A DNA stretch of 64,000 bases, from assembly GCF_024502345.1 (NCBI RefSeq), contig NZ_JALDNN010000001.1; one strand, 5' to 3'. The DNA comes from Escherichia coli (GTDB lineage Bacteria > Pseudomonadota > Gammaproteobacteria > Enterobacterales > Enterobacteriaceae). Positions 24,101 through 41,091 of the stretch are shown here, piece by piece. Numbering within the stretch: position 1 is the first letter of the stretch; every line of letters begins with the position of its first letter. Made by a program: the position numbers and the translations under genes. The notes under the pieces were generated by a model. It was given only the letters and a program-made list of their open reading frames with translations. It made no database searches and was not told where the DNA came from.

Positions 24101-24244
24101 CCCCTGATTAAGAAGGTCCTGAATCAGCTCCCGCTCAAGGTCCAATTCGCTCTGGTAGCTGTCACCGGTATCCATAACTTTTGTGTATTTATCAAGGACG
24201 ATAAAGTTATTGGATTCAGCAATGGTGTGTGTCTGTTGTGTCAT
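21128..24244 (-). CDS. hsdR: type I restriction enzyme R subunit (HsdR), type IC-like size
   Basis: 1038 aa; Walker [18 protein letters not shown]-box helicase motifs (FDECHRSQ), N-terminal nuclease region; RBS present. Confidence 0.9.
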
Positions 24245-24360
24245 GGAGCATCCTGTGCGTCATCTGGCAAAGTCCGGAAGGGTATCAGAAGCATCTTCCG
24301 GCATTCATAAAACCTGATACCGGACGGGTGAGAACAAACCCTGCCGGTATCAATGGTCCG

Positions 24361-25569
24361 TCAGTTGCTAGTTGTTTCGTGCTTCGGGAAGCTGAACAAC
24401 AAGTCGCGATAGTACTCGTACTGCTTCTGGCGTAGTTCTATTTCACGGGGTAAGCCTTCGGTGATAGAGCTTGTTAATGTGTCGAATTTATCGAGTATGG
24501 TGACAATCCTAACTTGCTCTGACTTTGAAGGGATTGGTAGTAAAAGGTCCTCCATTTGTTTTTTGGATACGGCAGGAATACCTCCTTTCTGCTGAATACC
24601 CGTTAATTTGGTCTCGGATTGTTTCAGATAGTAATAGACATACATCCAATGCAACTGTTCAGTGCTTCTAACAGAGATGGAATAGCAACTATTGCCTGCC
24701 CAGTAAGGAGTGGAACTCTTATTTACAAATCCTGCATTTGCTCCACGCGCACTCACAATAATCTTATCGCCATCATTGTTGAAGTCTTCGTAGTAACCTG
24801 TAGGAGTCCGCCCTCCGTTGTAGACCGGATAATCTGCGTCAGGATTCTGCTTGTCCTTACGGACAAACGCACCAATTGTAATTATTGCTACTTCCCCCAG
24901 ACTCTTCCACTCAACACTCCCCCCCTCAAAACTCAGCAATTGGTTACGATAGTAATTGTACTGCTTTTTACGCATGGTAAGCTCAGCTGTAAGCTCAGCT
25001 GTAAGAGCAGTAAATTTATCCAGAATTCGGACGATTTCAGACTGGATGGTCAGAGACTTTTCAGGATTTTCCGGGCAAGGAATGGGGGCTTTATATGCTG
25101 AAATCATTTGAAGATTCAGCCCACCACGCCCGCTGTTCCCAGATGATATCTGACGTAGATTATCATACTGGGTTTCCAAAAAGTGGAAAATATAATCTGA
25201 ATTGATCTTCCGCTCATCAAATGTAATGGCTGCAAGTGATTGATTGGTGGTTAATTTAATGCGGGTTCTTGCTACTTTACCACGAGTTTTACCCTGACCT
25301 GCTAATGCCATAACAATGGAATTTTCAGGAACAAATTTAGCACTTGAGTTATTTAATCCATCCTCAGTAATGAATGTCTCAGTTTCTTTGATGGTTTTTA
25401 AATTTACTTCACCTGAACTCATCCAGGGGATAGTTCCATGCTCCCAATATTCTGTTTTTTTAGTATCAGGGGTGCCACCAGAATAAATTTTTTTTGCAAC
25501 CTTACCGAGAGGGAACCACTCAACCTCAATCCCCTCCAGCAGTTTTTCCAGATAATTTAGCTTACTCAT
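24361..25569 (-). CDS. hsdS: type I restriction-modification specificity subunit (HsdS)
   Basis: 402 aa with two target-recognition domains separated by a central conserved region containing TAELTAEL; start overlaps the hsdM stop (ATGA). Confidence 0.85.
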
Positions 25570-27122
25570 GCCTGCGCCTCGTAGCCTTCAATTTCTGCCA
25601 CAATCGCATCAATGTCTTTGCGTAACTGGTCGATTTTGCTGACCGTGGTTTTAAGCTCAACATTCAGTTCGGTGATATCGACGATTTCACGGGTATCTTT
25701 TGCTTCGACGTAGCTACTGACAGACAGATTGTAGTCATTACCAGCAACAGTCTCTAATGGCACCGTTTTCGCCAGATGGTCAGTATCTGCCTTACTGTTG
25801 AACACATCCATAATCTGCTTAATATGACCATCAGTCAGGATATTGTTATTGGTTTCTTTCTTAAACAACCCGCTGGCGTCAATAAACTGAACGCGGGTAT
25901 CTGTTTTGTGCTTGGACAACACTAGTATGTTAACGGCAATGGTGGTGCCGAAGAACAGATTTGGTGCCAGAGAAATCACCGTTTCAACATAGTTGTTGTC
26001 GACCAGGTACTGGCGGATTTTCTGCTCTGCTCCGCCACGGTAGAAAATACCGGGGAAGCAAACTATTGCTGCACGCCCTTTAGCTGACAGGTAGTTTAGT
26101 GCATGTAGCACAAACGCAAAGTCAGCTTTTGATTTCGGGGCCAGTACGCCAGCAGGAGCAAAGCGCTCATCGTTAATCAGGGTCGGATCATCACTACCAA
26201 TCCACTTAACCGAGTACGGTGGGTTAGAAACAATCGCATCGAACGGTTTTTCATCGCCAAAGTGAGGCTCAGTCAGGGTATTCCCCAACCTGATATCAAA
26301 CTTATCGTAGTTGATGTTGTGCAGGAACATATTCATACGCGCCAGGTTAAACGTCGTATGATTTATCTCTTGTCCGAAAAAACCTTCTTCAATGATATGA
26401 TTATCAAAGTGCTTCTTCGCCTGAAGCAGCAGTGAGCCAGAGCCTGCGGCAGGGTCATAGATTTTGTTGACGTGAGTCTGACCATGCATCGCAAGCTGAG
26501 CAATCAGCTTAGAGACGTGCTGTGGTGTGAAGAACTCCCCGCCAGACTTACCGGCATTCGCCGCATAGTTTGAAATCAGGAACTCGTAGGCATCACCGAA
26601 AAGGTCAATCTGGTGCTCATTAAAATCCCCGAGCTTTAGCCCCTCAACGCCTTTCAGAACGGCAGCGAGGCGGCTGTTTTTGTCTTTGACGGTGTTACCC
26701 AGTCGATTGCTGGTCGTATCGAAATCGGCAAACAGACCTTTGATGTCGGCCTCAGACGGATAGCCGTAGGCAGAGCTTTCAATAGCGACGAAGATACTGT
26801 TTAAATCAGCATTCAGCCTGTCGTTGGTGTTCGCTTTAGCGGCAACGTTGCAGAACAGCTGGCTCGGATAGATGAAATAGCCTTTAGTCCTGATGGCATC
26901 ATCTTTGATGTCATCGGTAATGATGCTGTCATCAAGTGCTGCATAATGTATGCTCTCATCCCCTGCTTCCATGTAGCTGGAAAAATTCTCACTGATGAAG
27001 CGGTAGAAAAGGGCACCGAGTACATACTGTTTAAAATCCCATCCATCTACTGAGCCCCTGACATCATTGGCAATGGCCCAGATTTGACGGTGTAGTTCTG
27101 CACGTTGTTGAAGACTGGTCAT
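25566..27122 (-). CDS. hsdM: type I restriction-modification N6-adenine DNA methyltransferase (HsdM)
   Basis: 518 aa; catalytic NPPY motif ([10 protein letters not shown]) and AdoMet-binding motif. Confidence 0.9.
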
Positions 27123-27710
27123 TTTTATCCTGTTATCGATTCTTGGTTTCGGCTATTGCTGCGATTTTATCGCAATTTTACTTCTTTGACAGGTTTGAGT
27201 GATGCCTGATAGCCTCCCCAATGAAGGTTAAAATGGTTAATGAAATGTACAGAGAATCAATCGGATATGCTGTTTCGATTTCTGGAGCATCATTAGCGGT
27301 GTTTAGGGGCAGTTCATTACATTTCTGACCTTGTATAGATATGCCGTGATGAAATAAACGTTCACAGCCATCATCTGATCGGTGTGCAACAAAGGCGTCA
27401 TTCATTAAATACGCAGAGAGCCTGACTTATTGCGTCAACGGGTGAGTTACAATGTTGAATCTGGTAACGCCAAAACTGTGTAATTATCTACGCTAAATCA
27501 TTTCTGGTTAGCGTGACCGACGCCGGCGGTCTTAAGATGTACAATTCTTACTGTCTCCGAATGAATTTTATTTATTCAAACAGACTTGGGTGATATTATT
27601 ATCAAGTGAAAATGCCTGTTACCTACCTTGATGATATATACAGTGTTTTTACAGATGAATTTATATGTTTGTAATCAATGCGTGAGTTTGATGTTTTTAA
27701 GGTTAGTTAA

Positions 27711-28031
27711 ATGAAACAGCTATTGGATTTTATAATTGGAAGTTGTGTGGATAACAGAACCAAATTTCAGTTGCTTGCAGTTTGTTATCCAAAATGTAAG
27801 GATGATGAAGTGATGTTGATTTTGCGCTGGAGGGTAGCTGATTTGTATGCGCATGAACTGGAAGTTCAGAATTATCTTTTTAGAGAGCTGGAAGGTATCA
27901 TAGAGAAAATCACGGGCCTGCCTGAAACCTATTTTGTATCAAGCTATAAATCACTATTGACCGATGATTTTAGAGAACTCACAGCAGCGGGGGTTGATGT
28001 TTGTAAGTTTATTATGGAAAACAAAGGTTAG
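27711..28031 (+). CDS. hypothetical protein (106 aa), AT-rich orphan
   Basis: ORF in a low-GC segment, opposite orientation to its neighbours; no recognisable motif. Confidence 0.3.
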   Translation: MKQLLDFIIGSCVDNRTKFQLLAVCYPKCKDDEVMLILRWRVADLYAHELEVQNYLFRELEGIIEKITGLPETYFVSSYKSLLTDDFRELTAAGVDVCKFIMENKG

Positions 28032-28146
28032 TTGGATAAGAACCAACACATTTTCAGGTTCTGTTCTGGCTGAGGAACCTGAATATTCAATCAATGTGTT
28101 AGTTCTATTTTTGATGGTTAGATTTAAATGTGATTCTTTTGCGGTG

Positions 28147-28482
28147 TTATACTGCTGTTATGCATCTAAAAAGCTGACGGCTTTGTTTATGTTTTATGTT
28201 CGGATAGATTCTCATCGCAGCTGCACAGAGAGGTGAAACCTGCCTTGCTATATTTTTACCAAAGTTAACAAGAAGACCATGCTTGATCTTTTCACTATTC
28301 GTTCTGACTTTGATGACAAAGCTGAACTGATATACGATTACCTCAATGAGGTCATTGCCAAATGTTATACTGGCAGCGTTGTTTATTTCATGTTCATAAT
28401 TCCTCAGGTCAGTGTTAAGTCTTGCTGTTGCATCTACAAGTGCGTATTCTTTATCGATAATCATAACTTTCTCACTTATCAT
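28147..28482 (-). CDS. hypothetical protein (up to 111 aa), AT-rich orphan
   Basis: ORF 40 bp downstream of the HTH-WYL regulator on the same strand; start uncertain. Confidence 0.3.
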   Translation of the reverse strand: MISEKVMIIDKEYALVDATARLNTDLRNYEHEINNAASITFGNDLIEVIVYQFSFVIKVRTNSEKIKHGLLVNFGKNIARQVSPLCAAAMRIYPNIKHKQSRQLFRCITAV

Positions 28483-28522
28483 GTTAATGTGATTTAATCA
28501 TCACTAATAATATGTTGTGATT

Positions 28523-29236
28523 TTAATTGCGATTATTCGGTTGTTTTGCCCCGTAATGCATTATCTGATGAATAATGTTCATGTGGGGTAAGGCTTCCAT
28601 AAAGTCAGACTGTTCAATCAGCGAAATGAGTGTGTTATCGATCTCAAACGTTGTATCCGGTAATACCTCAACCAGCCTGATTCGGGACAGGGAAATAACG
28701 AACACGCCCGATGACGTACATCCGGCAAGAAACCACTCCGCATGGCTGCAAAGCAGACGGTAGGGATGAACGGTATGGCTGACGTTTTCGTCGGTTCTGA
28801 TACGCACCTGGGTCTGGTTAAGTATGGCGAGCGTCAGTCTGCTGAAATCACCGAAAAGGGTGGGTTTCTGGCGCGGCTCCGGTAGCATAATCCTGTATGG
28901 CGAGGGACGTTCCCCGTCAAGCATCAGGCTCAGTAGTTTGGCATCCATCGCGGGTAACAGACGGTCAAGATGCAGCAACCTCGCCAGTATCTTCATATCC
29001 CGTTCCGTGCGGCGACGAAAGTAATGTGAGGCAAGCTGATACACGCCGTTGCTCTGTTCAATATCAAGGTAGGTCAGACGGACGTTGAAATCCCGTCGCA
29101 GCGTTCGCGTCGTCACTCCAAATTCTTCTGCCAGCGTCCCGATATGCAGCTTTTCACCCTGAAACAAACGGCTCAGGATGATGGAAAGGCGGGTTGCCAG
29201 TCTGTCATGTTCGTTTTCTTGTGTTATCAGCGTCAT
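28523..29236 (-). CDS. HTH-WYL domain transcriptional regulator
   Basis: N-terminal HTH LAEEFGVTTRTLRRDF; central WYL-type segment HPYRLLCSHAEWFLAGCTSSGVFVISLSRIRLVEV. Confidence 0.7.
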   Translation of the reverse strand: MTLITQENEHDRLATRLSIILSRLFQGEKLHIGTLAEEFGVTTRTLRRDFNVRLTYLDIEQSNGVYQLASHYFRRRTERDMKILARLLHLDRLLPAMDAKLLSLMLDGERPSPYRIMLPEPRQKPTLFGDFSRLTLAILNQTQVRIRTDENVSHTVHPYRLLCSHAEWFLAGCTSSGVFVISLSRIRLVEVLPDTTFEIDNTLISLIEQSDFMEALPHMNIIHQIMHYGAKQPNNRN

Positions 29237-29338
29237 ACATCATTTCCGAATTTAGCCGGGAAATGATGCCAGCAGTAGCGGACAGGATTTGTCCGCCCTC
29301 TGAAGTTTTTTAAAGTCTGAATACCTTAAATGTAAGTG

Positions 29339-30088
29339 CTAAACGTCAGTATTCTCAGGTGAATAAAGATGCTTCTGGCGCATGTAGGCAATAAAAATGC
29401 AGGATGGTAGCGTCACCCGGTATGCGGGACCGGCTAAATCAATCAGCAGCCAGAGAGAACTGAGCACCCAGCCCACGGGACCGGCAAAAGCGCCCATGGT
29501 ACGCGTCAGCATGGCATTTCCTGCAACGGTCAGCCCTCTGCCTAACAGGGCTTTCGCCACACCATTTGTGACAACAAGTGCCATCTGATAGGCCGCAAAC
29601 CCGGATGTTTTAATCCCCGCCTGGATTGCCATGGTCAGCAGCTCCGGCGTGGGATTGCTGTAGCCTGTCTGCAATTCTTCCGCCACGGTCTTTAGCTGAG
29701 CGGGTGTCATCTTCTCAAGGCTTTTCTCCAGGATCTTCATCAGCAGATTCATTTCAATGGTTTCAACACTGGATTTGCTGTTGTAGTTCACCTTCATTTT
29801 ATCGCAGGCATCGGTAAGAATTTCCCGGTACAGCACCCCTTTACCCCAGCGGAGCAGCGTGGCAAAGCTGTTCGCCCCAAACGTCTGAACTTCGGCGGCA
29901 ATGGCATCCCAGTAGCGCGGGTGGTTGGGCTTGTGTTTTTTATACTGAGGATCATAGGTCAGCGTTTCCGTGATGCGTGCCAGTCCGTCTTTCGGATCGC
30001 AGATAAGCACAGAAACCAGTAAATCCAGATCGTCACGATGACAGTGGCGCAGAAACTCAAGGTCGGGGTCGTGTCGGTAGGTAGCCAT
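29339..30088 (-). CDS. hypothetical protein (249 aa) with C-terminal Gly-rich hydrophobic segment
   Basis: ...GAFAGPVGWVLSSLWLLIDLAGPAYRVTLPSC...; possibly YaaW/UPF0174-like (from memory, unverified). Confidence 0.5.
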   Translation of the reverse strand: MATYRHDPDLEFLRHCHRDDLDLLVSVLICDPKDGLARITETLTYDPQYKKHKPNHPRYWDAIAAEVQTFGANSFATLLRWGKGVLYREILTDACDKMKVNYNSKSSVETIEMNLLMKILEKSLEKMTPAQLKTVAEELQTGYSNPTPELLTMAIQAGIKTSGFAAYQMALVVTNGVAKALLGRGLTVAGNAMLTRTMGAFAGPVGWVLSSLWLLIDLAGPAYRVTLPSCIFIAYMRQKHLYSPENTDV

Positions 30089-30231
30089 ATTTCACCTCAT
30101 TGCAGATATTGGACCTGACAGTTTAAGGAAGCACCCGGACAGGGTTTGTCCGCCTGAAAAACAAAAAAGTAAAAAAAAACCTACCCGAAAGCAGGTTTCT
30201 GTTCACCGGATGGAGGTATAACGCGTCGGGA

Positions 30232-30618
30232 TTACTTTCCGCGCCATTCCTTTTCCACTTTATCCGCAAAGGCATCGCACTGCCGGGCATATTCCGGGTT
30301 ATACAGAAGCTCCGACTGCGAAAGCTGCATGGCGGTCATGCTGCCGTTACGGGCGTTCGATTCGAGCCAGGTTCTGCCATAGGTTTGGTTCATCACCTGA
30401 AGTACCCTGTTGAATACCGGTCCGTTGAAGCGGGCATTGAGATTAACGCCTTTTACCTGAAGGCCGCTGTCACTGGTCTGGGTCAGGCGGGTGGAGTACA
30501 TCGCGCAGAAGGTCGAATTGGTAATCATCTGAGCGTCAGCCTGCTCGTCGGCGAACGCGCTGTGGCTGAAGGCGGAAAGCAGAATTGCGGCGGTTAACAG
30601 TTTTAAAGTTTTCATCAT
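30232..30618 (-). CDS. secreted/periplasmic hypothetical protein (128 aa)
   Basis: Signal peptide MMKTLKLLTAAILLSAFSHSAFA; two Cys residues in the mature part. Confidence 0.55.
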   Translation of the reverse strand: MMKTLKLLTAAILLSAFSHSAFADEQADAQMITNSTFCAMYSTRLTQTSDSGLQVKGVNLNARFNGPVFNRVLQVMNQTYGRTWLESNARNGSMTAMQLSQSELLYNPEYARQCDAFADKVEKEWRGK

Positions 30619-30692
30619 GTTCCCTTATGGATTGAAAAGCGGAGACAGCCTGCCATACGGGGTGGTCAGGAGATGTCCGGCAGAGAAAAAAG

Positions 30693-30932
30693 TCAGGGTT
30701 TCAGCGAGGGAGCCAGTCGCCAGCGGTGAGGGCCAGCGGATTCCAGCACAAAGGCCAGTTGAGCGAGGTCCCGTCTTGCTGTGCGGGGAGAGACGTCAAA
30801 CTGCCGGATGATGTAGCGAACAGATATTGTCTGACCGTAAAACAGGGCCATGGTCAGCCGGATAAGCCGTTCTCCCTGTCCGGTGACACGTTGCCTGCAA
30901 CGGCTGGCTTTCATCGTTGCCATACGCGCCAT
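30693..30932 (-). CDS. small HTH protein (79 aa)
   Basis: Motif FDVSPRTARRDLAQL resembles the HTH of DeoR/WYL-type regulators, but the protein has no C-terminal domain; overlaps the upstream gene by 22 bp. Confidence 0.45.
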   Translation of the reverse strand: MARMATMKASRCRQRVTGQGERLIRLTMALFYGQTISVRYIIRQFDVSPRTARRDLAQLAFVLESAGPHRWRLAPSLKP

Positions 30933-31375
30933 CGGTCCCCTTTCTGAAAAGAATCGAGGTGTCTGGCAAGCCAGATATCAGGGCACGAATCGCCGGTAAC
31001 GCAGCGGGCAGTAAACCGGTGGCAGTTAAAGTCGAGCAGGCTATAAGGATAGCGCTGACCCACTGCCGCCTTTGCCCGTTCAGCGGCCTGTGCACAACCC
31101 TGAGGCGTCAAATCCATACAGTCGGTATACACCGAGATAGCGGAGTTCCAGCCATCGAGCCGGTCAAGAAACCCTTTGGCCTTACTTTTGATAACGGTTC
31201 CATCGCCATCAAGATGAACAATATCGCCGTTACCCACATAGATACCGCTGTGTGCGGCAAGGCCAAAAAGCAGTTCGCACTGCACGATACCACCGTAAGC
31301 CGGTTCATCGACGCAGGAGAGAATGCAGTTATCGATAAATGAATCCACGAAGTTCAGCAGCAGAAGCCGGTACAT
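30911..31375 (-). CDS. LRAT/NlpC-P60-like papain-fold protein (putative acyltransferase/phospholipase)
   Basis: Track ORF 30911-31546 trimmed to MYRLLLLNF...; motifs HSGIYVGNGDIVH (catalytic His) and YSLLDFNCHRFTARCVTG (NCEHF-like nucleophile Cys), as in LRAT/PLAAT family. Confidence 0.55.
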   Translation of the reverse strand: MYRLLLLNFVDSFIDNCILSCVDEPAYGGIVQCELLFGLAAHSGIYVGNGDIVHLDGDGTVIKSKAKGFLDRLDGWNSAISVYTDCMDLTPQGCAQAAERAKAAVGQRYPYSLLDFNCHRFTARCVTGDSCPDIWLARHLDSFQKGDRWRVWQR

Positions 31376-31433
31376 AACATTCAGTTCCTTACTACGGGGG
31401 AGAGGGGGGATGCGGGGGAAACGTTGTGAACAC

Positions 31434-31862
31434 TCAGCTTTGCCACAACGTACGGACCGTGAAAACCCCCATATCGTGGTAAGCCATAAAGTTACTTTCC
31501 CACAGCGACCAGAACTCACGGGCGTCGACATGAGAGATATCGCCACAACGGGAAAGCCACGTGTATTGTTGCGTCCAGCTCACATCGACATCTTTTTCAA
31601 GCTCAGGCCATGGATGCCCTGCATAGTGAAAATCGGTGACGTAATCGAGCTGCCAGTCTTCTCCGGCAGGGATGAGGCGTATTTCGACCGGATGCCAGCC
31701 GCCCTTTTCCGGTGAGTATTCAGGGTCACGAAAGTTAATGGTTAATCCGGTGATGGGGTGACGATGAGGCGGTTTTTGCGCGAGGATATCCAGAAGCAGT
31801 TGGGTGAACGACCGGGAGAGCGGCAGCACATAGCCGCCCTGCAATATTACGGGTGATGACAT
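31434..31862 (-). CDS. hypothetical protein (142 aa)
   Basis: ORF in the co-directional array; no confident family assignment. Confidence 0.45.
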   Translation of the reverse strand: MSSPVILQGGYVLPLSRSFTQLLLDILAQKPPHRHPITGLTINFRDPEYSPEKGGWHPVEIRLIPAGEDWQLDYVTDFHYAGHPWPELEKDVDVSWTQQYTWLSRCGDISHVDAREFWSLWESNFMAYHDMGVFTVRTLWQS

Positions 31863-31908
31863 AGTGAATTTCCTGATTTTTGGTTAACAGAACACAGAAA
31901 AAGCGGGG

Positions 31909-32340
31909 TTAGTCCTGGCTGAGCGTAGCAAGCTGCGTCATACGATGCTGCCAGTCGGCATAGCAGCGGTGCATAAAGAGTCTGCTGCTGTCCGCTTCGA
32001 TAAGGCAGATATCCGGACTTCTGAGCACAGCAGCAAGAAACCCGGCGTTGTTGGTACTGCCCTGACCAAACAGTGGGCGAAATACACGGGACGGGAAGCT
32101 GTCCTGCTGCTGTTCCAGAATGGCGTGAATCGCATCAAGCGCTATCCATTCACGGGAGAACAGGCCCCCTTCGCCATTGGCGGTTAAGCGCAGGGCAAGA
32201 CTCCCGGTTTCACCCTCTTTACCCAGCTCATACGTCAGCAGTCCTTTACTGTGGGGGCTGATTTTCTCGGCTTCCCCCATGTAGAACACGGTATAGCTTT
32301 CGGTGACGGCGGCTTCGGTAGCGATTTTTTTCTTACTCAT
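31909..32340 (-). CDS. hypothetical protein (143 aa)
   Basis: Start overlaps the upstream gene's stop by 8 bp, suggesting translational coupling. Confidence 0.45.
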   Translation of the reverse strand: MSKKKIATEAAVTESYTVFYMGEAEKISPHSKGLLTYELGKEGETGSLALRLTANGEGGLFSREWIALDAIHAILEQQQDSFPSRVFRPLFGQGSTNNAGFLAAVLRSPDICLIEADSSRLFMHRCYADWQHRMTQLATLSQD

Positions 32341-32713
32341 GGTTCAGCGCCTCAATCAGGTTCCGGAGTTGAGTGATAACGGTCGTGTCCGGGAACACCA
32401 GATAGATACCCTGTCCGTTATCGCAGACGATACCGAGCAGGAGATACCAGCCATCATCAAGTGCGGTGACGTATTCCGGGTTAGCCAGTGCCACTGCCAG
32501 CAGCGGGTCTTCGGGGAGGGTGTCATCGTGGTTGAGATGCCAGAGCAGGGTTCCCGTTTCGTTCCAGAAGGTGGTAAACAGGTCGATATCATCGACAGGG
32601 CCAAGGATTTCATTGCTGAGGGCCGCCAGTGCGGAGGCGGGCAGGTTGAGAAGGGGAAGACTGGTGGGGGTCGTGAGTTTAAACATGATTATCTCCATAA
32701 ATGATTGATTCAT
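32333..32713 (-). CDS. hypothetical acidic protein (116-126 aa)
   Basis: First gene of the minus-strand array; downstream of an AT-rich divergent promoter region (32714-33204). Confidence 0.45.
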   Translation of the reverse strand: MNQSFMEIIMFKLTTPTSLPLLNLPASALAALSNEILGPVDDIDLFTTFWNETGTLLWHLNHDDTLPEDPLLAVALANPEYVTALDDGWYLLLGIVCDNGQGIYLVFPDTTVITQLRNLIEALNHE

Positions 32714-33204
32714 ATTGATAATATGTTTTCAAATGACTTTTAGTTACATTTTATTTACGTTGTTTGCTTTTTCTGGATTATGCCCTTAAATTTAGTTCTA
32801 ACCTGGCATTAAATCCCGTTTTTTTTAGATTTTTAGAGTTTTATAAAGAAATTAGCATGTGCTGTTTTAACTGAAAATGAGAGAAGGCTTGCGCACAATT
32901 GCTATTGATTTTCTTACTTATTTTCTCAATCACAAAACGCCTTAAATAGTTCAAAAAACAATCAACACCCCATAATCGATATTATTTATGGGGAGAAACG
33001 ACGTTTAAGCCTGAAAGTGGGGGAGTGGCACTTTCAGGAGATTAAGGAGGCAAACAGGCCTCTTTAACGCGTGTTTTTCTCACCAAAATGTCAGAGTCGG
33101 TGATTTGCACTTCAGTATTTCTGCCAATACTATTCGCTCCATGTGCTGGCCAGCATCTAACTCAATACCCTTAATCTGTATTAATTGAGCGAGATGTATG
33201 CATT

Positions 33205-34515
33205 ATGAAACCCGATAGTTCTTTAAACCAAATAACGCAGACAATGAAACGGAATGATGTTGATTCTGTGGATAGTCGCTTTTTTGAGTCAGCGCAAAAC
33301 ATGAAAACCAGCGTTGACGTTGAAGATTGCTGCGTTGAAGTGATGGTTCGACATCACAGCCCAAAGAATCAAAGAGAGGCATTCACTAAAGCTTTTTTTG
33401 ATGAGTGTAAAATCCGTGCAGTACAAACTGGCCGGACTATCGAAGCCAGCGATACAAAATGTACCGGGCTTAAGGCTATATTCCACTCATCCGGACGCAT
33501 TAAGTTTATTGTCCGCAAAAGTATTCGCGGAAAGAATGTTTACGTTGCAGTAGGAAGTTACCCTGAATTTTCCATTAATAACGCAAGGGAACATGCCTTT
33601 AAAATAATTCAGGAGCTTAAGGCTTCCGTTGAGACTTATGGTGAGCGTTTTCTTACTCACAGTAAAATGACGTTTAATGAGCTTGTGGATGAGTATGAGA
33701 AAAGCGTACTCAGCACGGGCGTTAAGCGTTCAGCTAACACCGATCTTTCTAAGATCCGTAAATACCTGCGCCCTCTTCTCGGTGCCAAAAAGCTGGCAGG
33801 TATGACGGAGGCAGATATTCTGAGCTATCTGCATAATCTCGATCTCAAGCCTGCCACCCGCAACCGCCATCTGGCGCTCATTAAAGCGGTGTTTACCAGG
33901 GCAATACGCATGGGATACATCAGCCGCTCTCCGGCGCTTTATATCAAAGCGCTGCCTGAAGTGACGTCAGATCGCCGTGCCATGGATGACTCCCAGCTTC
34001 AGCGCTGGATGGACGTCTGTGAGCGCTGGCGTAATGGTAAACCCGATCATGAAGCCCTTGCTCTTCTCATGTTCCTTGCCCTGACGGGGCTGCGTCTGGG
34101 GGAAACCCGTCACCTTCGTCTTGAAGATGTGGACTGGAGCCGCAAGGTTATCACCCTTCGCCATACCAAAAACGGCAAACTACGCCGTGTACCGGTATGT
34201 GATAAGGCTTTCGTTCTTCTGACAGAACAGCGTCAGCATCTGGGTGATGAAGGCTGGGTATTTCCGGGCAAGGGAACCGACAATCCGGTTGCTGAGCCGC
34301 GTCGCCTGCAAAAACGACTTTGTGAGGCTGCGGGTATTCCACCGTTCACCATCCATGAGATGCGTCATACCTTTGCGACAAAGCTCATTGAGAGCGGGGC
34401 CGACATTCACACCGTCAAAGACTTATTGGGTCACAGCACTATCAAAGTAACGGAGCTTTACTTGCACGCTTCCCCGGCGCGTTACCACGAAGTCGTTAAC
34501 CGGGCGATGGGGTAA
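33205..34515 (+). CDS. tyrosine recombinase/integrase (P4-like arm-binding N-terminus)
   Basis: 436-aa ORF; C-terminal catalytic region ...HEMRHTFATKLIESGADIHTVKDLLGHSTIKVTELYLH (HxxR...Y). Confidence 0.75.
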   Translation: MKPDSSLNQITQTMKRNDVDSVDSRFFESAQNMKTSVDVEDCCVEVMVRHHSPKNQREAFTKAFFDECKIRAVQTGRTIEASDTKCTGLKAIFHSSGRIKFIVRKSIRGKNVYVAVGSYPEFSINNAREHAFKIIQELKASVETYGERFLTHSKMTFNELVDEYEKSVLSTGVKRSANTDLSKIRKYLRPLLGAKKLAGMTEADILSYLHNLDLKPATRNRHLALIKAVFTRAIRMGYISRSPALYIKALPEVTSDRRAMDDSQLQRWMDVCERWRNGKPDHEALALLMFLALTGLRLGETRHLRLEDVDWSRKVITLRHTKNGKLRRVPVCDKAFVLLTEQRQHLGDEGWVFPGKGTDNPVAEPRRLQKRLCEAAGIPPFTIHEMRHTFATKLIESGADIHTVKDLLGHSTIKVTELYLHASPARYHEVVNRAMG

Positions 34516-34584
34516 CAACCTTCACTCAACGGTATGGTTTTTAACTATGGTTCTGATGCACCCGTTTTCTGACGGTGGCGTAAT

Positions 34585-36513
34585 TTGATGGTAATACACA
34601 TGAATAAAAAAGTGACAACTAATGTTCCTAAGGTTTCCGGGATTAAGCGTATTCGCGCTTTTGCTGACCGCGATAAAAATTTCAACAAAATGTCGGAAGC
34701 AATTATCAGGCGTGCTGAAAACACTGAGGTCGGTGAAGATGATATCGCTTCACTCGGTATTGGTGATGGGCTGCCACGGCATTATGTGAATACGGCTAAT
34801 GGCCTTTTCTACATCGGTGGACAGAAACCTGTGCAGGTTTGCACCACGCCAGTTGTGCCTGTCGCCCTGTTTTGTGGAAAAGATAAGGAGTCCGGTCTTG
34901 GGATCAGCCTGATGACCGGTAACGGGCTGGGTAAGTATGTTAAGGCCCTGGTACGCTTTGAGGATATTGTTCAGAGCGGTGCTCAGGTAGTAGGCAAACT
35001 GGCAGATCGTGGATTTTGTGTTGGCTCCTCTCCACAGCAGTTTGCCCTTTTTGACCGTTTTCTTCAGCGCTGCCGGAGTTTACCGCTGCCTGTCTATCTG
35101 ATGGCAGATGCGATGGGATTCGTTTCGGAGGATATGGCCTTTTTACATGGTCATGAGCCCGTTGTGACCTCTCTGACCGGGTTTGATTATCTACTGCCGG
35201 GATTCCGCGTGCGTCCCGGACTGCACAAAGGTGGGGCCCTGGAGGAGTGGATTAACCTCATCCGGGAAAATGTCCATGGCTGGGCGCAGACCTTTGCACT
35301 GAGTGCGTCCTTTGCTTCGATGCTTCTGGTTCCTGCCGGTATGGATGTGGGCATGTTTCATTTTCACGGCGTATCCACCACCGGTAAAACGCTTCTCCTG
35401 ATGCTGGCTGCATCGGTCCATGGTGATGGCAGCGAGCCGGGTAGTGGGGGGAATGTAAATATTATTCGCTGGAATACCACGCCTAACGCGATGGAGCGCC
35501 TTCTCGCTGACTATTCCGGTCTGGTCGCCTGCGTCGATGAACTGGGTGCGAGTAATCATAAGCAACTTTCCTCACTGCTTTACAACATTACGTCAGGTAC
35601 GGCAAAAGAGCGCCTGAACCGTGGCCTGACGGCAGATGAGCCGTTTAAATGGCGCATGTTTATTCTCTCCACCGGTGAGATGTCAATCTCCGAAAAGCTG
35701 GCTGAACAGAAAGCCGTGTTACAGGGAGGGCAGGAGCACAGGGCCATCAGTATGGAACTGTTGCCTGAGGATGCTCAAAAACCGGATGAACCGGTATCAG
35801 AAACACGTGCCCGTGCAGATGCACTGAAGACGGGGCTGGCAGAGGCTTATGGTCATGCCGGGCCTGCATTTATCGGCAAACTGTTATCCGGGAAAAATAC
35901 GGCTGGCGGTCTTCGCACCTACGCAGAGTTTTCATCCTGGCTCCAGGAACAGACAGATGATTGCTGTAACGCACTGGAAGAGGCCCTGAGGGATGAGGGG
36001 CGTGATATTACCCGCGTTCAGCGGCGCGGACTGAAAAGATTTGCGCTGGTATGGCTGGCAGGAGAGAAGGCGCTGAAATATGGCCTTTTACCTTTCGAAA
36101 GCGATGCGGTGGCTGAATCCGTTATGTCCGCTGCACGACGCTGGCTGGATGATAACCAGAATCAGTATAACCCGGTGCGTAACATGCTGGAGGAGCTTCA
36201 GCTGACGCTGGTGACAAAAAGCAGCAGGCACTTTATCACCCTGCGTGACGAACATGCCCGATGCCCGGGAGATATGTGGGGATTCGTCCATTACAAAACC
36301 GGCGACTTCCTGATTTATGAATCGGTGTTTGAAAAGCTCTGTTCTGAAAAGGGACTTAAGACCGTTGATGTGGCCAGACCGTTAGAGCGTTCCGGTTATC
36401 TGCTTGGCGAAAGTGCCGGACACTATAAAAAAAGAGCGCTGAAGACGATGGCGCAGTCTTACTACCAGGTCAAAAAAGCGTTTCTGAAATGCAATGTGAT
36501 GACCGAATTTTAA
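34585..36513 (+). CDS. DUF927-like P-loop NTPase, putative replication/primase-helicase protein
   Basis: 642 aa; Walker A GVSTTGKT, Walker B-like VACVDELG; positioned after the integrase as in satellite-like elements. Confidence 0.55.
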   Translation: MMVIHMNKKVTTNVPKVSGIKRIRAFADRDKNFNKMSEAIIRRAENTEVGEDDIASLGIGDGLPRHYVNTANGLFYIGGQKPVQVCTTPVVPVALFCGKDKESGLGISLMTGNGLGKYVKALVRFEDIVQSGAQVVGKLADRGFCVGSSPQQFALFDRFLQRCRSLPLPVYLMADAMGFVSEDMAFLHGHEPVVTSLTGFDYLLPGFRVRPGLHKGGALEEWINLIRENVHGWAQTFALSASFASMLLVPAGMDVGMFHFHGVSTTGKTLLLMLAASVHGDGSEPGSGGNVNIIRWNTTPNAMERLLADYSGLVACVDELGASNHKQLSSLLYNITSGTAKERLNRGLTADEPFKWRMFILSTGEMSISEKLAEQKAVLQGGQEHRAISMELLPEDAQKPDEPVSETRARADALKTGLAEAYGHAGPAFIGKLLSGKNTAGGLRTYAEFSSWLQEQTDDCCNALEEALRDEGRDITRVQRRGLKRFALVWLAGEKALKYGLLPFESDAVAESVMSAARRWLDDNQNQYNPVRNMLEELQLTLVTKSSRHFITLRDEHARCPGDMWGFVHYKTGDFLIYESVFEKLCSEKGLKTVDVARPLERSGYLLGESAGHYKKRALKTMAQSYYQVKKAFLKCNVMTEF

Positions 36514-36562
36514 CCCTGAATAAAACCATTTTGACTGAATAACAACGAATAGAAGGTGATGT

Positions 36563-36919
36563 ATGATTTTTGAATCAGACCAGTACTATGACGGTTTTCC
36601 TCACGCTATCAGCAGCGAAAATGAAGAAAAAACCTCATTCAATGATTACGCTCTGGTTAACACACTGGCGGAGTGCCTGTATCACGACATTTCTCGTGAA
36701 ATCTTCGATGGCAGTGAGCCGGCGCTCCGGGCCGTCATTGCCAACGGTCAGATTAAATTCCTGGCTCGTTATACGCTTAGAGGGGCCTGCTATTATGAAC
36801 CCCTCGGCACATTTCCACGTATGCCCGTTAACGTCGCGCGTGAACGAGCACGTGAACTCTATAACAGATTTGATGATCACCGGGTGCCGGATGAAGAATA
36901 TGGGGCCATCCCGTTCTGA
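36563..36919 (+). CDS. hypothetical protein (118 aa)
   Basis: ORF following the replication gene; no motif. Confidence 0.4.
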   Translation: MIFESDQYYDGFPHAISSENEEKTSFNDYALVNTLAECLYHDISREIFDGSEPALRAVIANGQIKFLARYTLRGACYYEPLGTFPRMPVNVARERARELYNRFDDHRVPDEEYGAIPF

Positions 36920-36930
36920 CTGATGGCTGA

Positions 36931-36965
36931 ACAGTAAAAAAAAGCAGGGGCACTTGCCTCTGCTT
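36931..36965. terminator. bidirectional terminator between convergent genes
   Basis: aaaaaaaa-gcaggggcacttgcctctgc-ttttctgtt hairpin flanked by A- and T-runs. Confidence 0.4.
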
Positions 36966-36973
36966 TTCTGTTA

Positions 36974-38158
36974 TCACAAGGACGGTAGCTGAGCCGTTAT
37001 CCTTTCCGCCAGTAACTGACTGGTGTTCTGTAAGCGCTGAGGATGAAGATGCGCATACCGTTGTGAAGACTGACTGCTGCGGTGCCCCAGTTGAGCCTGA
37101 ACGTCATACAGTGTTCCGCCGTAGGACACGATGAGGGCGGCAACCGAATGGCGGCAGGTATGAATACACACTTCTTTGTCGAAAATTCCCGCCCGACGAA
37201 CGATACGCTGAAAGGCTTTAACGGGGTTATTCAGCGGCATTCCTTGTTTTTTACCGATAAACAACCACGGATTTCCACGCTGTGTTGGCAGTGTTCTGAT
37301 TACGTCCATCGCCAGTGAATTAAGATGAACAATCCGTCCATAGCCATTCTTGGTTTCCGGGAGCCATAGGGTGCGTTTAACCGGGTCAACATGCTCCCAC
37401 TTAGCCAGACGCAGTTCATCACGACGAAGGCCGGTCAGTAACAGCAGTTTGACATAGCGGGCAGCTACGGGGCTGGTATCGTTATCGGCGGAGAGAAAAA
37501 TACGACGAATTTCGTCCTCGGTAAAATAACGCTGTCGGGCGTTGTTCTCCCTGAGTAGCTGTACCACCCTTGCCGGATGAACAGAGGTCATGCTTTGCCT
37601 TCCGGCCCATGTAAAGACGGCTTTAATGAGTACGATGACACGGTTACAGGTAGCCGCTGACAGGGAAGTACTTAACGTCTGCTGAAGGCGCAGAATGCTC
37701 GCTGGTGTGATATCGCTCAGCAGCCTCTGACCAATGGCGGGACGGATATGATCGCGGTAGCGCTGAACATCCTTTCCCCAACTGCGTTTAGCGGATTTTG
37801 CCCATGGCAGATAATGCTGATTAAAGAGTTCATCGAACGTCAGCTCCATTCTCTTGTTTTCACGCTCCTGCTTAGGGTCAGTGCCGGTGGCAAGGGAACG
37901 TTTGTGTTCTATGGCAATCTGACGAGCAAGATTGACGTCCACTTCAGGCCAGTGACCAATGGCGATGGCGCGTTTTCGTCCATGATAAAGGTAGCGTAGC
38001 AAAAACTTTTTACGACCTTCTCTTCTGCTGACCAGACACTTGAGGCCGGAAATCTCAGTGTCGCTGTATTCGGCATCGGTACTGCGTGCATCGGATGTGT
38101 TAGGGGGCAGGGATTTAATGAGCTGATTAGTAAAACGGAAGCGTTTGGGGGTGGACAT
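36974..38158 (-). CDS. tyrosine integrase (P4-type), the one nearest the intact tRNA-Phe
   Basis: 394 aa; DUF4102-like N-terminus (...EISGLKCLVSRREGRKKFLLRYLYHGRKRAIAIGHWPEVDVNLAR...) and C-terminal catalytic region HTCRHSVA...LGHRSSQSSQRYAHL. Confidence 0.8.
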   Translation of the reverse strand: MSTPKRFRFTNQLIKSLPPNTSDARSTDAEYSDTEISGLKCLVSRREGRKKFLLRYLYHGRKRAIAIGHWPEVDVNLARQIAIEHKRSLATGTDPKQERENKRMELTFDELFNQHYLPWAKSAKRSWGKDVQRYRDHIRPAIGQRLLSDITPASILRLQQTLSTSLSAATCNRVIVLIKAVFTWAGRQSMTSVHPARVVQLLRENNARQRYFTEDEIRRIFLSADNDTSPVAARYVKLLLLTGLRRDELRLAKWEHVDPVKRTLWLPETKNGYGRIVHLNSLAMDVIRTLPTQRGNPWLFIGKKQGMPLNNPVKAFQRIVRRAGIFDKEVCIHTCRHSVAALIVSYGGTLYDVQAQLGHRSSQSSQRYAHLHPQRLQNTSQLLAERITAQLPSL

Positions 38159-38503
38159 ATAACCTCCTGTGACTGGTGTAAAGAACGTCAGGGTTGCCCC
38201 ATCCCCGGCACGGCGCTGTTAATGGCTGAGTTGATTTTCTGGTGTGGCTAAGGGAATGCTGGTGCCACATGGGATGAATGAAGACGAGAAATACAGCAAA
38301 AACAGGCGTTACGGTCTGCTTCTGGTCTTAAGGGGAAGATTGCCGTTGGGGAAGAGTTCACAGAAATAATATGTGTTTCAGTCGGGTATAATTACATGTG
38401 ATAAGGGCAAAGAGCGTGCTTTGCTAAAATTTGACATGTTGAAGTCCACTCTTTTTAACGATGTCGTTATGGACGACATGGCGAGTCTTGCTTAGATAAT
38501 TAA

Positions 38504-39091
38504 TCAAAATACTGTGACTTTGGACCCACGTTTACCACATTTCGAGCACTTGAGCCGAGTTTTAAGGTCTTCTAGAGTTACTCCCATTGCAACATACTGC
38601 TTAAGGTCGTTCAAAGTAAGGATTGTGGGGAGACGACAAAAAAATCCAGAGGCGCAACATACCAGCATCTCCGAGCCGTTTTTTAACCAGTCCTCAAGAT
38701 TATCGTGCGATCTCGTTAGTCGTTCGATATCCGCTCTCCACTGCTGGATTTCATTACCGTTCCAGTCGATATTTAGCTCGATTTGTTTGGCAACGAACCG
38801 GTGTTTACCTCTGTTAACTGTGGGTTCATAGTCCTTACGTTGATCTTTGATGAGATCAGCCTCATAGAGGAAATCATCGTTTTTGTTGTCGGTATAATCA
38901 AAAATTACCTTAATTAAATCAATATCAACGTTTTGTTTTTTGATGAATAAACCCTGTGTTCCGCTTCCGTTCAAGTCCCGGCTAAAGTTAATGTTGAGAT
39001 GGCGGCGGAGTGAGAAGAAATAGCTGTGGCCGTGCATAGCCAATGCAAGTCTGGCTATGTCATTGCAGTTGTAGGGTGTGTGTGTATCCAT
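38504..39091 (-). CDS. hypothetical protein (195 aa) with C-terminal CxxC-like tail
   Basis: ORF between integrase and att region; ends ...LKCSKCGKRGSKVTVF. Confidence 0.4.
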   Translation of the reverse strand: MDTHTPYNCNDIARLALAMHGHSYFFSLRRHLNINFSRDLNGSGTQGLFIKKQNVDIDLIKVIFDYTDNKNDDFLYEADLIKDQRKDYEPTVNRGKHRFVAKQIELNIDWNGNEIQQWRADIERLTRSHDNLEDWLKNGSEMLVCCASGFFCRLPTILTLNDLKQYVAMGVTLEDLKTRLKCSKCGKRGSKVTVF

Positions 39092-39805
39092 GATGTTACC
39101 TTTAATTCATATTCGGTCGAGAGCGTCAGGAAACTATCCTAATATACCTTTTTTCTACACCAGTATTTGGATCAATTTTCATCCCTTTGGCCTGCTTCTT
39201 GTTGATTAACTCTCAGCGATGTTTGAAATAGGCCATCAGTGGTCAGAATCATTTTTTACTTCCACTTTTTGCTCAGATTTGACCCTAAGGTCTAAGTTCC
39301 AATACGTTTCGCTCAATTACTATCACCCCTGATAAATTATTCTATGATGACGTGGAGGGCGGGGGATTCAGGCAATGTTAAGAAATGAAAGGTTTAAATG
39401 CGAATATTACAGGTGGAGGAGGTGGTGGATACCCCCGACTGACAAGGGGAGTTGATGGCGCTGAGTTCACCCCCTTGCCTGAAGAGGAGTCTCCCCGGTC
39501 TTCCCCCGGGGGGGATGGCAGGTAATTTGTTGTTAAATAAAGTAAATTATGAAATCCCCCATTTCCCCCGTATTCTCTGCTTCATTATGAATAATCTTAG
39601 AGAAAGGAACCGTAAAGGACCGTAGAAAGACCGTAGCTGTGAGGTGAGGGAAGGCACATCAGAGGATGTTGAGGTGTCTAAAAGTAACGAACATCTGCAA
39701 AAATGGTGAAAAATCCAGCAAGAAAATAACGTGTTGCAACGACCAGAAATCTACCGTAGCTAAGAAAGGAAAAAGCCCCGCTTTTCAGCGAGGCCTTATG
39801 AATAT

Positions 39806-39881
39806 TGGTGCCCGGACTCGGAATCGAACCAAGGACACGGGGATTTTCAATCCCCTGCTCTACCGACTGAGCTATCCGGGC
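39806..39881 (-). tRNA. pheV: tRNA-Phe (GAA anticodon)
   Basis: Revcomp reads gcccggatagctcagtcggtagagcaggggattgaaaatccccgtgtccttggttcgattccgagtccgggcacca, a canonical 76-nt tRNA-Phe with CCA end; next to yqgA-speC. Confidence 0.95.
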
Positions 39882-39986
39882 AACGGGGCGCATTAAACCT
39901 GATTCGCCTCGTCTCGTCAATCAAATTTCTTCAATTTACTGCAGACTGCACAATCTATCATCACTTTGCCGCTATTGCACGCATTG

Positions 39987-40694
39987 TCAGGCAAACCAGG
40001 CGGTCCAGGCGGCGGAAAGCGGCATTGCCAGAAGGAGTGCTGGAAGCATGTTGACCACCGGGAACATTTTAATGCCACAGATGCGTAATCCGGTTGCCAG
40101 CAGCAATAAACCGCCTACGGCGCTGAAGTCTGCCATCATCGACGGTGTGGTCAGCGGTAATATCAGCGCGGCAGCCCACGCCAGCGTTAACTGGATGATC
40201 AGTAATGGGATACTAATTACCGACACCGCAATACCCAGCGAGCAGGCGAAGATCATCGCCGTAAAGAAATCAAGAAATGACTTGGCGATTAAAATACTCG
40301 GATCGCCGGTCATCCCTTCGTTCATCGCCCCGAAGATCCCGGTGCCGCTGGCGCAAAACAGGACAATAATCGCGACATAATTCTGAATAAAAGATTCATG
40401 CGCTGGCTTCTTACGTGAGTGACGAAACAGATTTTGTGCTTTGGCGACTGCTGTATTGACACCTTTCTCCAGCAAACAAATTTCGCCAATTAGAGCGCCA
40501 AGTAGCGTAGCTAAAACCATCGCTGGAAGGTTGGCGCATTTCACAACCAGTAAAATACCAATCCCCAGCGATGCCAGACCAAAAATAGATGTCATGGAGA
40601 CGCGGATACGTTCCGGTAAGCGTTGGCTGAGCAGTGCGCCGAGAACGCCACCCAGTAAGACTGCACTAGCGTTGATAAAAGGGCCGATGACCAC
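39987..40694 (-). CDS. yqgA: DUF554 family inner membrane protein
   Basis: 235-aa multi-TM protein; position between pheV and speC as in E. coli. Confidence 0.8.
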   Translation of the reverse strand: MVIGPFINASAVLLGGVLGALLSQRLPERIRVSMTSIFGLASLGIGILLVVKCANLPAMVLATLLGALIGEICLLEKGVNTAVAKAQNLFRHSRKKPAHESFIQNYVAIIVLFCASGTGIFGAMNEGMTGDPSILIAKSFLDFFTAMIFACSLGIAVSVISIPLLIIQLTLAWAAALILPLTTPSMMADFSAVGGLLLLATGLRICGIKMFPVVNMLPALLLAMPLSAAWTAWFA

Positions 40695-41091
40695 AAGAGT
40701 TCCTGTTAGCTGTATTGTTTGATTTTCTTATTATGAACTTTTTGCCTTGTTGATGGCTTGTCTGGTCGCAAAGTCCTGGCTTGCACGCTTTAGCGAAAGG
40801 TGCCATGATTGCGCGAATTTTCTCCTCTCTGTACGGAGTTTGCCCGATGCACGCCATCTCCTTACATTCTCTCGCTTATCGCCGTTTCGCGCGAAACGTT
40901 TCCCTTTCTATGTTACTGCTCATGCGGTGAAGTTAACGCACGCTCACTGCAGGACAACAGTAAAATCAGAGCGTTTCTGCTTTTACTGATGTCTGGCGGT
41001 CGGAGCTGGTGACCAGTTTGACCCATATCTCATGGGGCAGGGTTTTCCACCTTGTCCGGTATTCTTACTTCCCCGAAACGGGTTTGCGCTT

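Follow-up and report, generated by a model that had tools for sequence, protein, structure and literature searches.

What does a gene-free stretch of 714 bp do at the tRNA-proximal end of a genomic island? The question is raised by positions 39092-39805 of the window, the 64,000-nucleotide stretch of Escherichia coli DNA that we analyzed. The tRNA-Phe gene bordering this interval (39806-39881, minus strand) has yqgA and speC as neighbours, which identifies it as pheV. Its 3' 49 nt, from the anticodon stem-loop to CCA (39806-39854, minus strand), form an identity block, the att core, of which a second exact copy lies at 20242-20290. This direct repeat delimits a 19.5-kb island (20291-39805), which would have integrated in pheV through recombination within those 49 nt. 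Leftward of 20241 we found native pheV/pheU downstream DNA with its own terminator, present in essentially all E. coli genomes, and beyond it a second, older island of the intP4 type, with its own integrase (18782-20044); the two pheV islands stand in tandem. Islands are conventionally described with attL as the tRNA-proximal junction; the initial annotation had placed the interval near attR.

Reading from the tRNA, the gene-free 714 bp give way to an ORF of 195 aa that matches no family (38504-39091, minus strand) and then to the tyrosine integrase gene int (394 aa; 36974-38158, minus strand), whose product combines Arm-DNA-bind_3, a central and a catalytic domain. Next come a stand-alone 118-aa ORF (36563-36919), a gene for a 642-aa DUF927/Cch-like protein with a Cch-type HTH, and a second integrase gene. 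Further genes encode a DUF2787 protein, an LRAT-like protein, a small HTH protein, a WYL regulator (28523-29236) and a type I restriction-modification system. Three of the proteins encoded by the island have arm-binding-like domains. No excisionase gene was identified in the island, the 79-aa HTH protein encoded at 30693-30932 being a candidate only.

As the initial annotation had stated, there is no ORF of 60 aa or more inside 39092-39805. Two mechanical ORFs of 76 and 80 aa (39666-39896 on the plus strand and 39678-39920 on the minus strand) overlap the right end of the interval because they run through the tRNA gene, and RefSeq annotates nothing within the stretch in the 100 E. coli genomes that contain it in full. 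One could argue that a small protein is encoded here, either by the 46-aa ORF at 39385-39525 or as the 52-aa RefSeq product of strain ABWA45, given that several window-type sequences keep the same frame open (…NITGG…RLTRGVD…), one of them with a RefSeq annotation. But the starts and stops of this ORF vary among close relatives, frameshifting indels separate the window from sequence L002 and sequence L006 from L007, column entropy is lowest at third codon positions (0.73, 0.75, 0.63) and there is no Pfam match, which leaves a small protein gene with hardly any probability. The interval holds no credible gene.

The interval is composed of two parts joined together. The first, 39092-39271, is a cargo-specific 5' flank of the 195-aa ORF (minus strand) and lies outside the conserved module. 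It is not kept in relatives with other cargo, the DNA left of about 39272 varying with the neighbouring gene, and homology to other islands begins at query positions 141-248 of the stretch, with alignments starting near 39272. A promoter scan gave nothing convincing here, and nothing conserved; the RefSeq start of the homologous ORF is a later ATG, giving 177 aa instead of 195. The second part, 39272-39805, is a module of 534 bp that adjoins tRNA-Phe or its 49-nt 3' copy, and which we refer to as the integrase-side arm (attL arm) module.

At least part of the stretch occurs in 221 of 5426 E. coli genomes, and the whole of it, at 96-99% identity, in 100. Conservation within E. coli is nested towards the tRNA: some genomes share the stretch only from query positions 141-248 onwards, and many junctions share only its last 240 or 160 bp. 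Beyond E. coli, a survey with an 18-nt pattern from the tRNA-proximal site, scanning one genome per species, found the module beside tRNA-Phe in Erwinia, Shimwellia, Enterobacter, Buttiauxella, Silvania, Citrobacter, Mixta, Pseudocitrobacter, Morganella and Kluyvera. In all, it stands at tRNA-Phe or the 49-nt 3' copy in at least 12 genera of Enterobacterales, and 36 more contigs with the module came from a metagenome scan. Eight Klebsiella IncFIB/HI1B plasmids also carry it, followed by the same 49-nt tRNA-Phe fragment; these matches consist of the att module plus the 49-nt core, two of them truncated by IS903B, and thus do not point to a plasmid function. An oriT, a cos site or a phage origin was considered and set aside, with no matches in phages or viral contigs. 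According to these results, the islands at tRNA-Phe with this module are an uncharacterised but widespread Enterobacterales family.

Next to the tRNA, the module contains an intrinsic terminator for tRNA-Phe (39772-39797, minus strand). Read from the sequence, its core is a 7-bp G+C-rich stem with a 6-nt loop followed by U5 (GCCUCGC-UGAAAA-GCGGGGC, then U5), and a terminator scan that allowed G-T pairs gave 11 pairs, 6 of them G-C, around a 4-nt loop. The terminator starts 8 nt past tRNA-Phe and lies on the tRNA-sense strand. Variant stems show changes from C-G to U-G and from U-G to U-A, which preserve pairing on the tRNA-sense strand only, since they produce C-A mismatches on the other. At the same position, Yersinia and loci L077, L085 and L043 have an unrelated hairpin with a T-run, and the native E. 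coli pheV locus has a hairpin terminator of its own. Its sequence, the strand-specific pair changes and the analogous hairpins elsewhere show that the island supplies a replacement terminator for the transcript of the interrupted tRNA. An interplay of tRNA promoter and terminator with int transcription is described for ICEKp1 and related ICEs; in ICEKp1 the tRNA terminator is displaced, and read-through, attenuated by leader stem-loops, expresses int (PMC13023037). In the island and in ICEKp1 alike, integration replaces the DNA downstream of the tRNA, and it is therefore the element that decides on read-through from the tRNA. Unlike ICEKp1, the island places a canonical terminator 8 nt past the tRNA, and its int lies 1.6 kb off behind cargo.

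Further into the module there are two clusters of short direct repeats on the plus strand. A distal triple of ACCGTA (39609-39614, 39619-39624 and 39630-39635; spacing 10 and 11 nt) and a proximal pair formed by ACCAGA (39742-39747) and ACCGTA (39753-39758), 11 bp apart and at 64 and 53 nt from the tRNA-Phe 3' end, are putative arm-type sites. The ACCGTA(A/G) repeats are located where they had been reported before, at 39609, 39619, 39630 and 39753, and ACCGTAR, present four times in the 714 bp, averaged 0.08 copies in 5000 dinucleotide shuffles, with a maximum of 2. Since this short and degenerate motif (ACC-R-K-A) was picked after the sequence had been viewed, we also ran unbiased 6-mer tests. 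Some 6-mer occurred three times without overlap within 30 nt in 39 of 5000 shuffles, and a 6-mer reaching four copies was typical of shuffles. Four copies of some 6-mer are thus not unusual, and the significance of the repeats comes from their clustering, their phasing and, above all, their conservation. The two right-hand copies of the triple (GACCGTAGARAGACCGTAGC) are kept across genera, the first being weaker or deleted in some sequences. The proximal pair is invariant in the 7 aligned E. coli sequences, and it is unchanged save for one spacer base in every other full module that we aligned.

Copies of the repeats are also found outside the module. The far arm has the pair ACCAGA and ACCATT (20411-20416 and 20422-20427, plus strand), again 11 bp apart and placed 121 nt inward of the direct repeat at that end (ACCAGAATCCTACCAT, 20411-20426). 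Strain PSJ-22, with other adjacent cargo, keeps this pair as ACCAGATAACTACCAT, and its resemblance to the far end of the island in the window begins right at the pair; this far-arm comparison covers two independent sequences. In the upstream/leader region of int we located an inverted composite site, GACCAGAAGCAGACCGTA (38310-38327, minus strand), and a further ACCAGAA half-site (38237-38243). The pattern GACCAGAANNNNACCGTA, with 14 specified bases, has exactly two perfect matches in the 64 kb, namely 38310-38327 and 39741-39758. Across four int alleles the half-sites upstream of int are invariant, save for one ACCAGA base in one of them, with a variable spacer. Other 7-mers shared by the int-upstream region and the module, beyond the arm motif, were discarded as they are not kept in relatives.

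By following integrase homologues, we reached more distant islands. In Edwardsiella, with an integrase 83% identical, the proximal pair is ACCAGA/ACCGTA and the distal repeats are ACCGGA/ACCGTA; in Tatumella (70%), the pair is ACCATA/ACCATA, with three distal ACCGGA; and in Rosenbergiella (70%), it is ACCATA/ACCATG, with distal ACCGGA/ACCGTA. In all three the pair lies 64 and 53 nt from the tRNA. Yersinia enterocolitica (63%) has ACCAGA/ACCGGA at 63 and 52 nt, with two distal ACCGGA. Most of the arm is unalignable across islands with integrases 63-83% identical, and the motif class ACC-R-K-A, the 10-11 bp phasing and the distance to the tRNA are kept at integrase identities of 63-100%. The inverted composite upstream of int is found as well in Yersinia and a related contig, as TCCGGTCTATTTCTGGTC or TCCGGTCTTTCTCTGGTC (pattern TCCGGTCT(A/T)T(T/C)TCTGGTC). 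We had considered that motif and integrase change in strict concert and softened this to lineage-specific variants, because Edwardsiella and Rosenbergiella mix ACCGGA and ACCGTA in one pair.

The island's integrase matches PF13356 (Arm-DNA-bind_3) at residues 10-101 (E = 2.5e-13) and PF00589, and the short motif is repeated, separately from the core, on both arms, with five int-side and two far-arm sites. The conserved motif class, phasing and tRNA distance, together with the arm-binding domain, make integrase arm-type sites the best reading of the ACC-R-K-A repeats. The proposal of the initial annotation that they resemble such sites is in this way well supported on comparative grounds: conserved pairs, copies on the far arm and upstream of int, and Arm-DNA-bind_3. 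One alternative is that the ACCGTA-type repeats are bound by an excisionase, a regulator or the 118-aa protein and that the true integrase arm sites lie elsewhere, for example in the G/C boxes described below. Excisionase sites are likewise direct repeats one helical turn apart, a phasing on one face of the helix that suits cooperative DNA-binding proteins (PMC7498355); three island proteins have arm-binding-like domains; and the G/C boxes are equally conserved and phased. However, integrase arm sites are classically distributed in just the way of this pair, on each arm and again upstream of int, excisionase sites being usually confined to one arm; the geometry of the pair to the core is fixed across lineages; and the arm-binding-domain match of the 118-aa protein is weak (E = 0.0019, under the Pfam cut-off). 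We consider a binder other than the integrase unlikely and retain the integrase arm-type sites.

Conservation in the module peaks over the roughly 100 bp (39636-39741) that separate the two arm-site clusters. Most columns of this spacer are at least 90% conserved among 39 non-redundant sequences, with almost no indels, and it includes ACATC-N4-GATGT and a GTTGCAAC palindrome. Bending or accessory proteins presumably have their sites here. A scan with the IHF consensus showed no enrichment and no significant match, with none in 39600-39805, and no Xis or Fis sites were identified in the arm.

The heterobivalent tyrosine integrase of lambda uses its N-terminal domain to bind the arm-type sites P1, P2 and P'1-P'3 of attP. 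The island resembles lambda in its short repeats on both arms, three of them phased in tandem on the int side, in its separate core (here inside the identity block), in a dedicated arm-binding domain and in conserved spacers that may serve bending proteins. Unlike lambda, its motif is ACC-R-K-A, its core lies in a tRNA gene and no IHF, Xis or Fis sites were found; its arm is also much longer, since the distal triple stands some 170-200 nt away from the end of the tRNA, a greater distance than that between arm sites and core in lambda.

In P4 and in intP4 islands, the identity block lies at the T-loop/3' end of the tRNA and measures about 20 bp. The label 'P4-family', previously given to the integrase, fits only loosely. 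It agrees with the DUF4102-type arm-binding N-terminus and with the tRNA 3' end as neighbour. The identity block departs from it, as the 49 nt of the island extend to the anticodon stem-loop, in contrast to the short block of about 20 bp. The integrase is 24% identical to the neighbouring P4-like pheV integrase and, as judged through this neighbour, probably not a close relative of P4 Int. Similarly, the island shares with the GI-pheV intP4 islands the target, the tRNA-then-int orientation and the direct repeats of the tRNA 3' end, but those islands have repeats of 19-23 bp and P4-type integrases (PMC11537424), instead of the 49-nt repeat and different integrase found here.

On the other side of the distal triple, the module contains a G/C-box region (39340-39575) of invariant G- and C-tracts with variable spacers, as seen in the 39 non-redundant sequences. 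At its left are the inverted boxes ACGTGGAG/CGGGGGATT (39350-39368); at its right, there are direct CCCCC boxes at 39432, 39470, 39503, 39556 and 39565 and a CCCC box at 39493. The boxes are of the TTCCCCG/CGGGGAA type, and 4 of the 31 TYCCCCR matches in the window fall inside the 534-bp module. A tandem C-box pair, AATCCCCCATTTCCCCCGT (39553-39571), stands just outside the distal arm sites in every lineage, and an inverted tandem pair lies about 195-205 bp off (ACGTGGAGGGCGGGGGATT here, ACGGGGAAACGGGGA in Tatumella and Rosenbergiella). Homologous boxes are present in the Tatumella, Edwardsiella, Rosenbergiella and Yersinia islands, often as arrays phased at 8-11 bp; the Yersinia arrays comprise at least four boxes at intervals of 10-11 bp. 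In a cargo-bearing Yersinia island there is no G/C-box array next to the arm repeats; its C-boxes lie by the int-upstream site and inverted G-box arrays further towards the cargo, showing that the position of the boxes relative to the arm sites is not fixed. Elsewhere in the island, we found no convincing G/C boxes upstream of the second integrase gene or near 31395.

The initial annotation had described cccc/gggg stems in this region, possibly forming a small RNA or a recombination enhancer. The tracts are real, at 39350-39570. The plus strand of 39340-39600 folds only modestly better than its shuffles do (-90.7 kcal/mol, z = -2.17), and the minus strand no better (z = -0.85). A structured small RNA or a single-stranded DNA hairpin at 39340-39575, with the G-tracts pairing to downstream C-tracts, would be consistent with the plus-strand value, with a column-shuffle control of the alignment fold (z = -4 to -6) and with the left G-boxes and right C-boxes being inverted repeats about 195-205 nt apart in several lineages. 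There is also one possible compensatory change (GGGGGATT/AATCCCCC versus GGGGAATT/AATTCCCC), but the same pair is broken in other lineages (A-C in sequence L030). Consensus folding of both strands found no conserved secondary structure backed by covariation: RNAalifold credited covariation with only -0.87 kcal/mol, nearly every predicted pair being an invariant G-C. An Rfam scan of 36000-41000 at E <= 1 scored the tRNA alone, with nothing else at E < 0.1; no conserved promoter or terminator surrounds the region; a 9-bp inverted repeat that stabilises the fold of the window is missing in close relatives; and the boxes also form direct phased arrays, which a helix does not need. A structured RNA or hairpin is accordingly quite improbable, and the small-RNA proposal did not hold. 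The G/C region does not code for protein, nor is there support for it as an RNA.

The boxes could instead be replication-origin iterons, used after excision by the DUF927/Cch-like helicase. The island does encode the DUF927 protein with its Cch-type HTH, and the iterated boxes adjoin an A+T-rich stretch (39521-39555) in window-type sequences. But this stretch is not conserved in the other sequence type, and Tatumella keeps the boxes even though gene calling over the 10 kb past its int gave neither a DUF927 gene nor a second integrase, which makes an origin for this helicase unlikely. Moreover, in every relative without cargo the boxes have the att arm on one side and the int promoter on the other, a location that fits recombination control better, and we give the origin very little credence.

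The G/C boxes look like phased protein-binding sites that belonged to the int-att control region before cargo insertion. The earlier suggestion of a recombination enhancer is close in spirit to this reading as accessory-protein boxes, which rests on sequence comparison. As in the recombination directionality factor (RDF) arrays of 186 Apl, lambda Xis and RdfS (PMC7498355, PMC11963761), the boxes are direct repeats at about one helical turn beside arm sites and the int promoter. Unlike those arrays, their sequence differs from known RDF sites, inverted boxes lie about 200 bp off and no excisionase gene was found. The boxes also resemble the tRNA-Phe anticodon-stem half-sites, the presumptive core-type sites (GGGGATT/AATCCCC). 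A pseudo-tRNA or pseudo-core in the module was rejected, the local alignment of module to tRNA-Phe being at chance, with 7-41% of shuffles scoring equally; because of this chance-level similarity, the resemblance to the anticodon stem is a lead or anecdote only. A bolder idea is that the G/C array, far from being a passive part of the arm, represents a second class of recombination site, in the form of core-like half-sites (TCCCCG, as in the anticodon stem of tRNA-Phe) or a folded single-strand structure. It would then mark, or even direct, cargo insertion, with anti-phage genes entering between the att arm and the int promoter. If this long shot were true, the island family would be a cassette-like acquisition platform.

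The history of the interval becomes clearer in relatives without cargo. There, the gap between tRNA and int measures 622 bp (Tatumella) or 758 bp (Edwardsiella), and its order is terminator, proximal pair, distal repeats, C-box pair, G/C region, G-box pair and int upstream region; the module is collinear with this entire spacer. An 18-mer, CACAGAAATAATATGTGT, is common to 38357-38374 of the window and to Tatumella. In the window, the conserved int-upstream region (242 bp) and the module (534 bp) together approximate the gap of the relatives, which indicates that the interval is most of an int-att control region split by cargo. The cargo occupies about 38400 to 39272 and separates the int promoter from the G/C boxes. 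In relatives, this slot is 1.6-7.3 kb long and contains an anti-phage dCTP deaminase together with a 152-aa ORF, an ABC-three-component system together with an LmuA-like gene, a protein of 472 aa that matches HEC-07 weakly, or two GmrSD genes.

This arrangement also bears on the expression of int. In prophage KplE1, attL overlaps the int promoter, and int is under negative control by Int and the excisionase (PMC2951348); P4 Int and Vis are reported to repress Pint (work cited in PMC7286903). As in P4 and KplE1, transcription of the island's int points away from the tRNA-proximal junction, the upstream/leader region of the gene contains a copy of the arm-site pair, and promoter region and arm are one unit of 620-760 bp in cargo-less relatives. 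Unlike in those elements, a cargo gene parts the promoter from most of the arm in the window. The continuity of promoter region and arm in cargo-less relatives, together with the inverted pair, points to a coupling between int expression and att-arm occupancy, and by analogy with P4 and KplE1 we infer that int may be autoregulated.

Taking all of this together, 39272-39805 is probably the integrase-side att arm of the pheV island, with a terminator, arm-type sites, an accessory spacer and G/C boxes. The 394-aa integrase would dock on the five phased ACC-R-K-A sites through its N-terminal arm-binding domain. Together with the matching far-arm pair, this would bridge the arms to the core and assemble an intasome able to carry out excision (attL x attR) and integration (attP x attB). 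The conserved spacer may serve bending or accessory proteins, and the G/C boxes (TCCCCG/CGGGGA, often one helical turn apart) may bind a recombination partner or regulator, that is, an excisionase-like factor or the integrase itself. Expression of int would be tied to att-arm occupancy, as in P4 and KplE1.

As a kind of element, the arm is textbook, with its arm-type sites, terminator and accessory boxes; the added interest lies in the split control region with its slot for defence cargo and in the G/C-box array. The arm sites offer concrete mutation targets for tests of island mobility. The islands of this family carry restriction-modification and other anti-phage genes, and the module is probably their attachment-site arm. 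Their ancestral int-att control region, of about 620-760 bp, is split by a slot in which the variable defence cargo sits. Searching this slot could reveal more candidate defence genes, of which the unannotated 195-aa ORF would be one.

Between the promoter region of the integrase gene (int, 36974-38158, minus strand) and the att module, the conserved integrase-side arm at 39272-39805, lies a cargo slot (38400-39272) whose contents vary between the window and its relatives L002, L006, L007, L040, L044 and L089. The window carries here a 195-aa ORF without a family match; in the relatives the slot is occupied by an anti-phage dCTP deaminase, by LmuA and an ABC-three-component system, by a HEC-07-like protein or by a GmrSD pair. 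Both this 195-aa ORF and a 152-aa ORF found in the slot of a relative are candidates for new defence genes.

The att module is also found, together with the 49-nt fragment of the 3' end of tRNA-Phe, on conjugative IncFIB/HI1B plasmids: Klebsiella pS141.1 (L049, 12001-12556) and seven similar ones, and also in L050. On these plasmids it is flanked by a DUF1778/GNAT toxin-antitoxin pair on one side and by ICE-type transfer genes on the other, and in two of them it is truncated by IS903B.

In the Rosenbergiella locus L093, the spacer from tRNA-Phe (7867-7942) to int (9001) contains a tandem duplication, about 440 bp in size, which takes in the pair of G boxes and the distal pair of arm sites. In two metagenome contigs, L077 and L085, a double arm site of 20 nt, GACCGTAGAGAGACCGTAGC, has been retained at a distance of about 280 bp from either tRNA-Phe or the 3' fragment of this gene. 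Its surroundings are otherwise unrelated and duplicated and include two different terminators; this arrangement looks like a decayed junction. At the far end of the island, the window shows a tandem arrangement (18782-20290): the partial tRNA copy (20242-20290) adjoins the native pheV/pheU terminator (about 20200-20241), which nearly all E. coli have, followed by a second island with a P4-like integrase of its own (18782-20044), which shares 24% identity with the integrase studied here.

Regarding proteins that may act on these sites, a stand-alone 118-aa ORF (36563-36919, plus strand), convergent with int, gives a weak match to an Arm-DNA-binding domain (E = 0.0019), and RefSeq annotates its counterparts in relatives as Arm DNA-binding domain proteins. 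At arm sites, its product could be a competitor of the integrase. A 79-aa DeoR-type HTH protein (30693-30932, minus strand), 37% identical to a counterpart located at the same position of the Yersinia island, after the LRAT-like gene, is a candidate for the role of excisionase or of a regulator acting at the G/C boxes.

Finally, the island encodes a second tyrosine integrase of 436 aa and, after it, a DUF927 protein that carries a Cch-type HTH (33205-36513). Gene calls gave the two of them in the islands of Yersinia, Rosenbergiella and Edwardsiella, and neither in the 10 kb past int of the Tatumella island. Their presence points to possible replication of the island after its excision.
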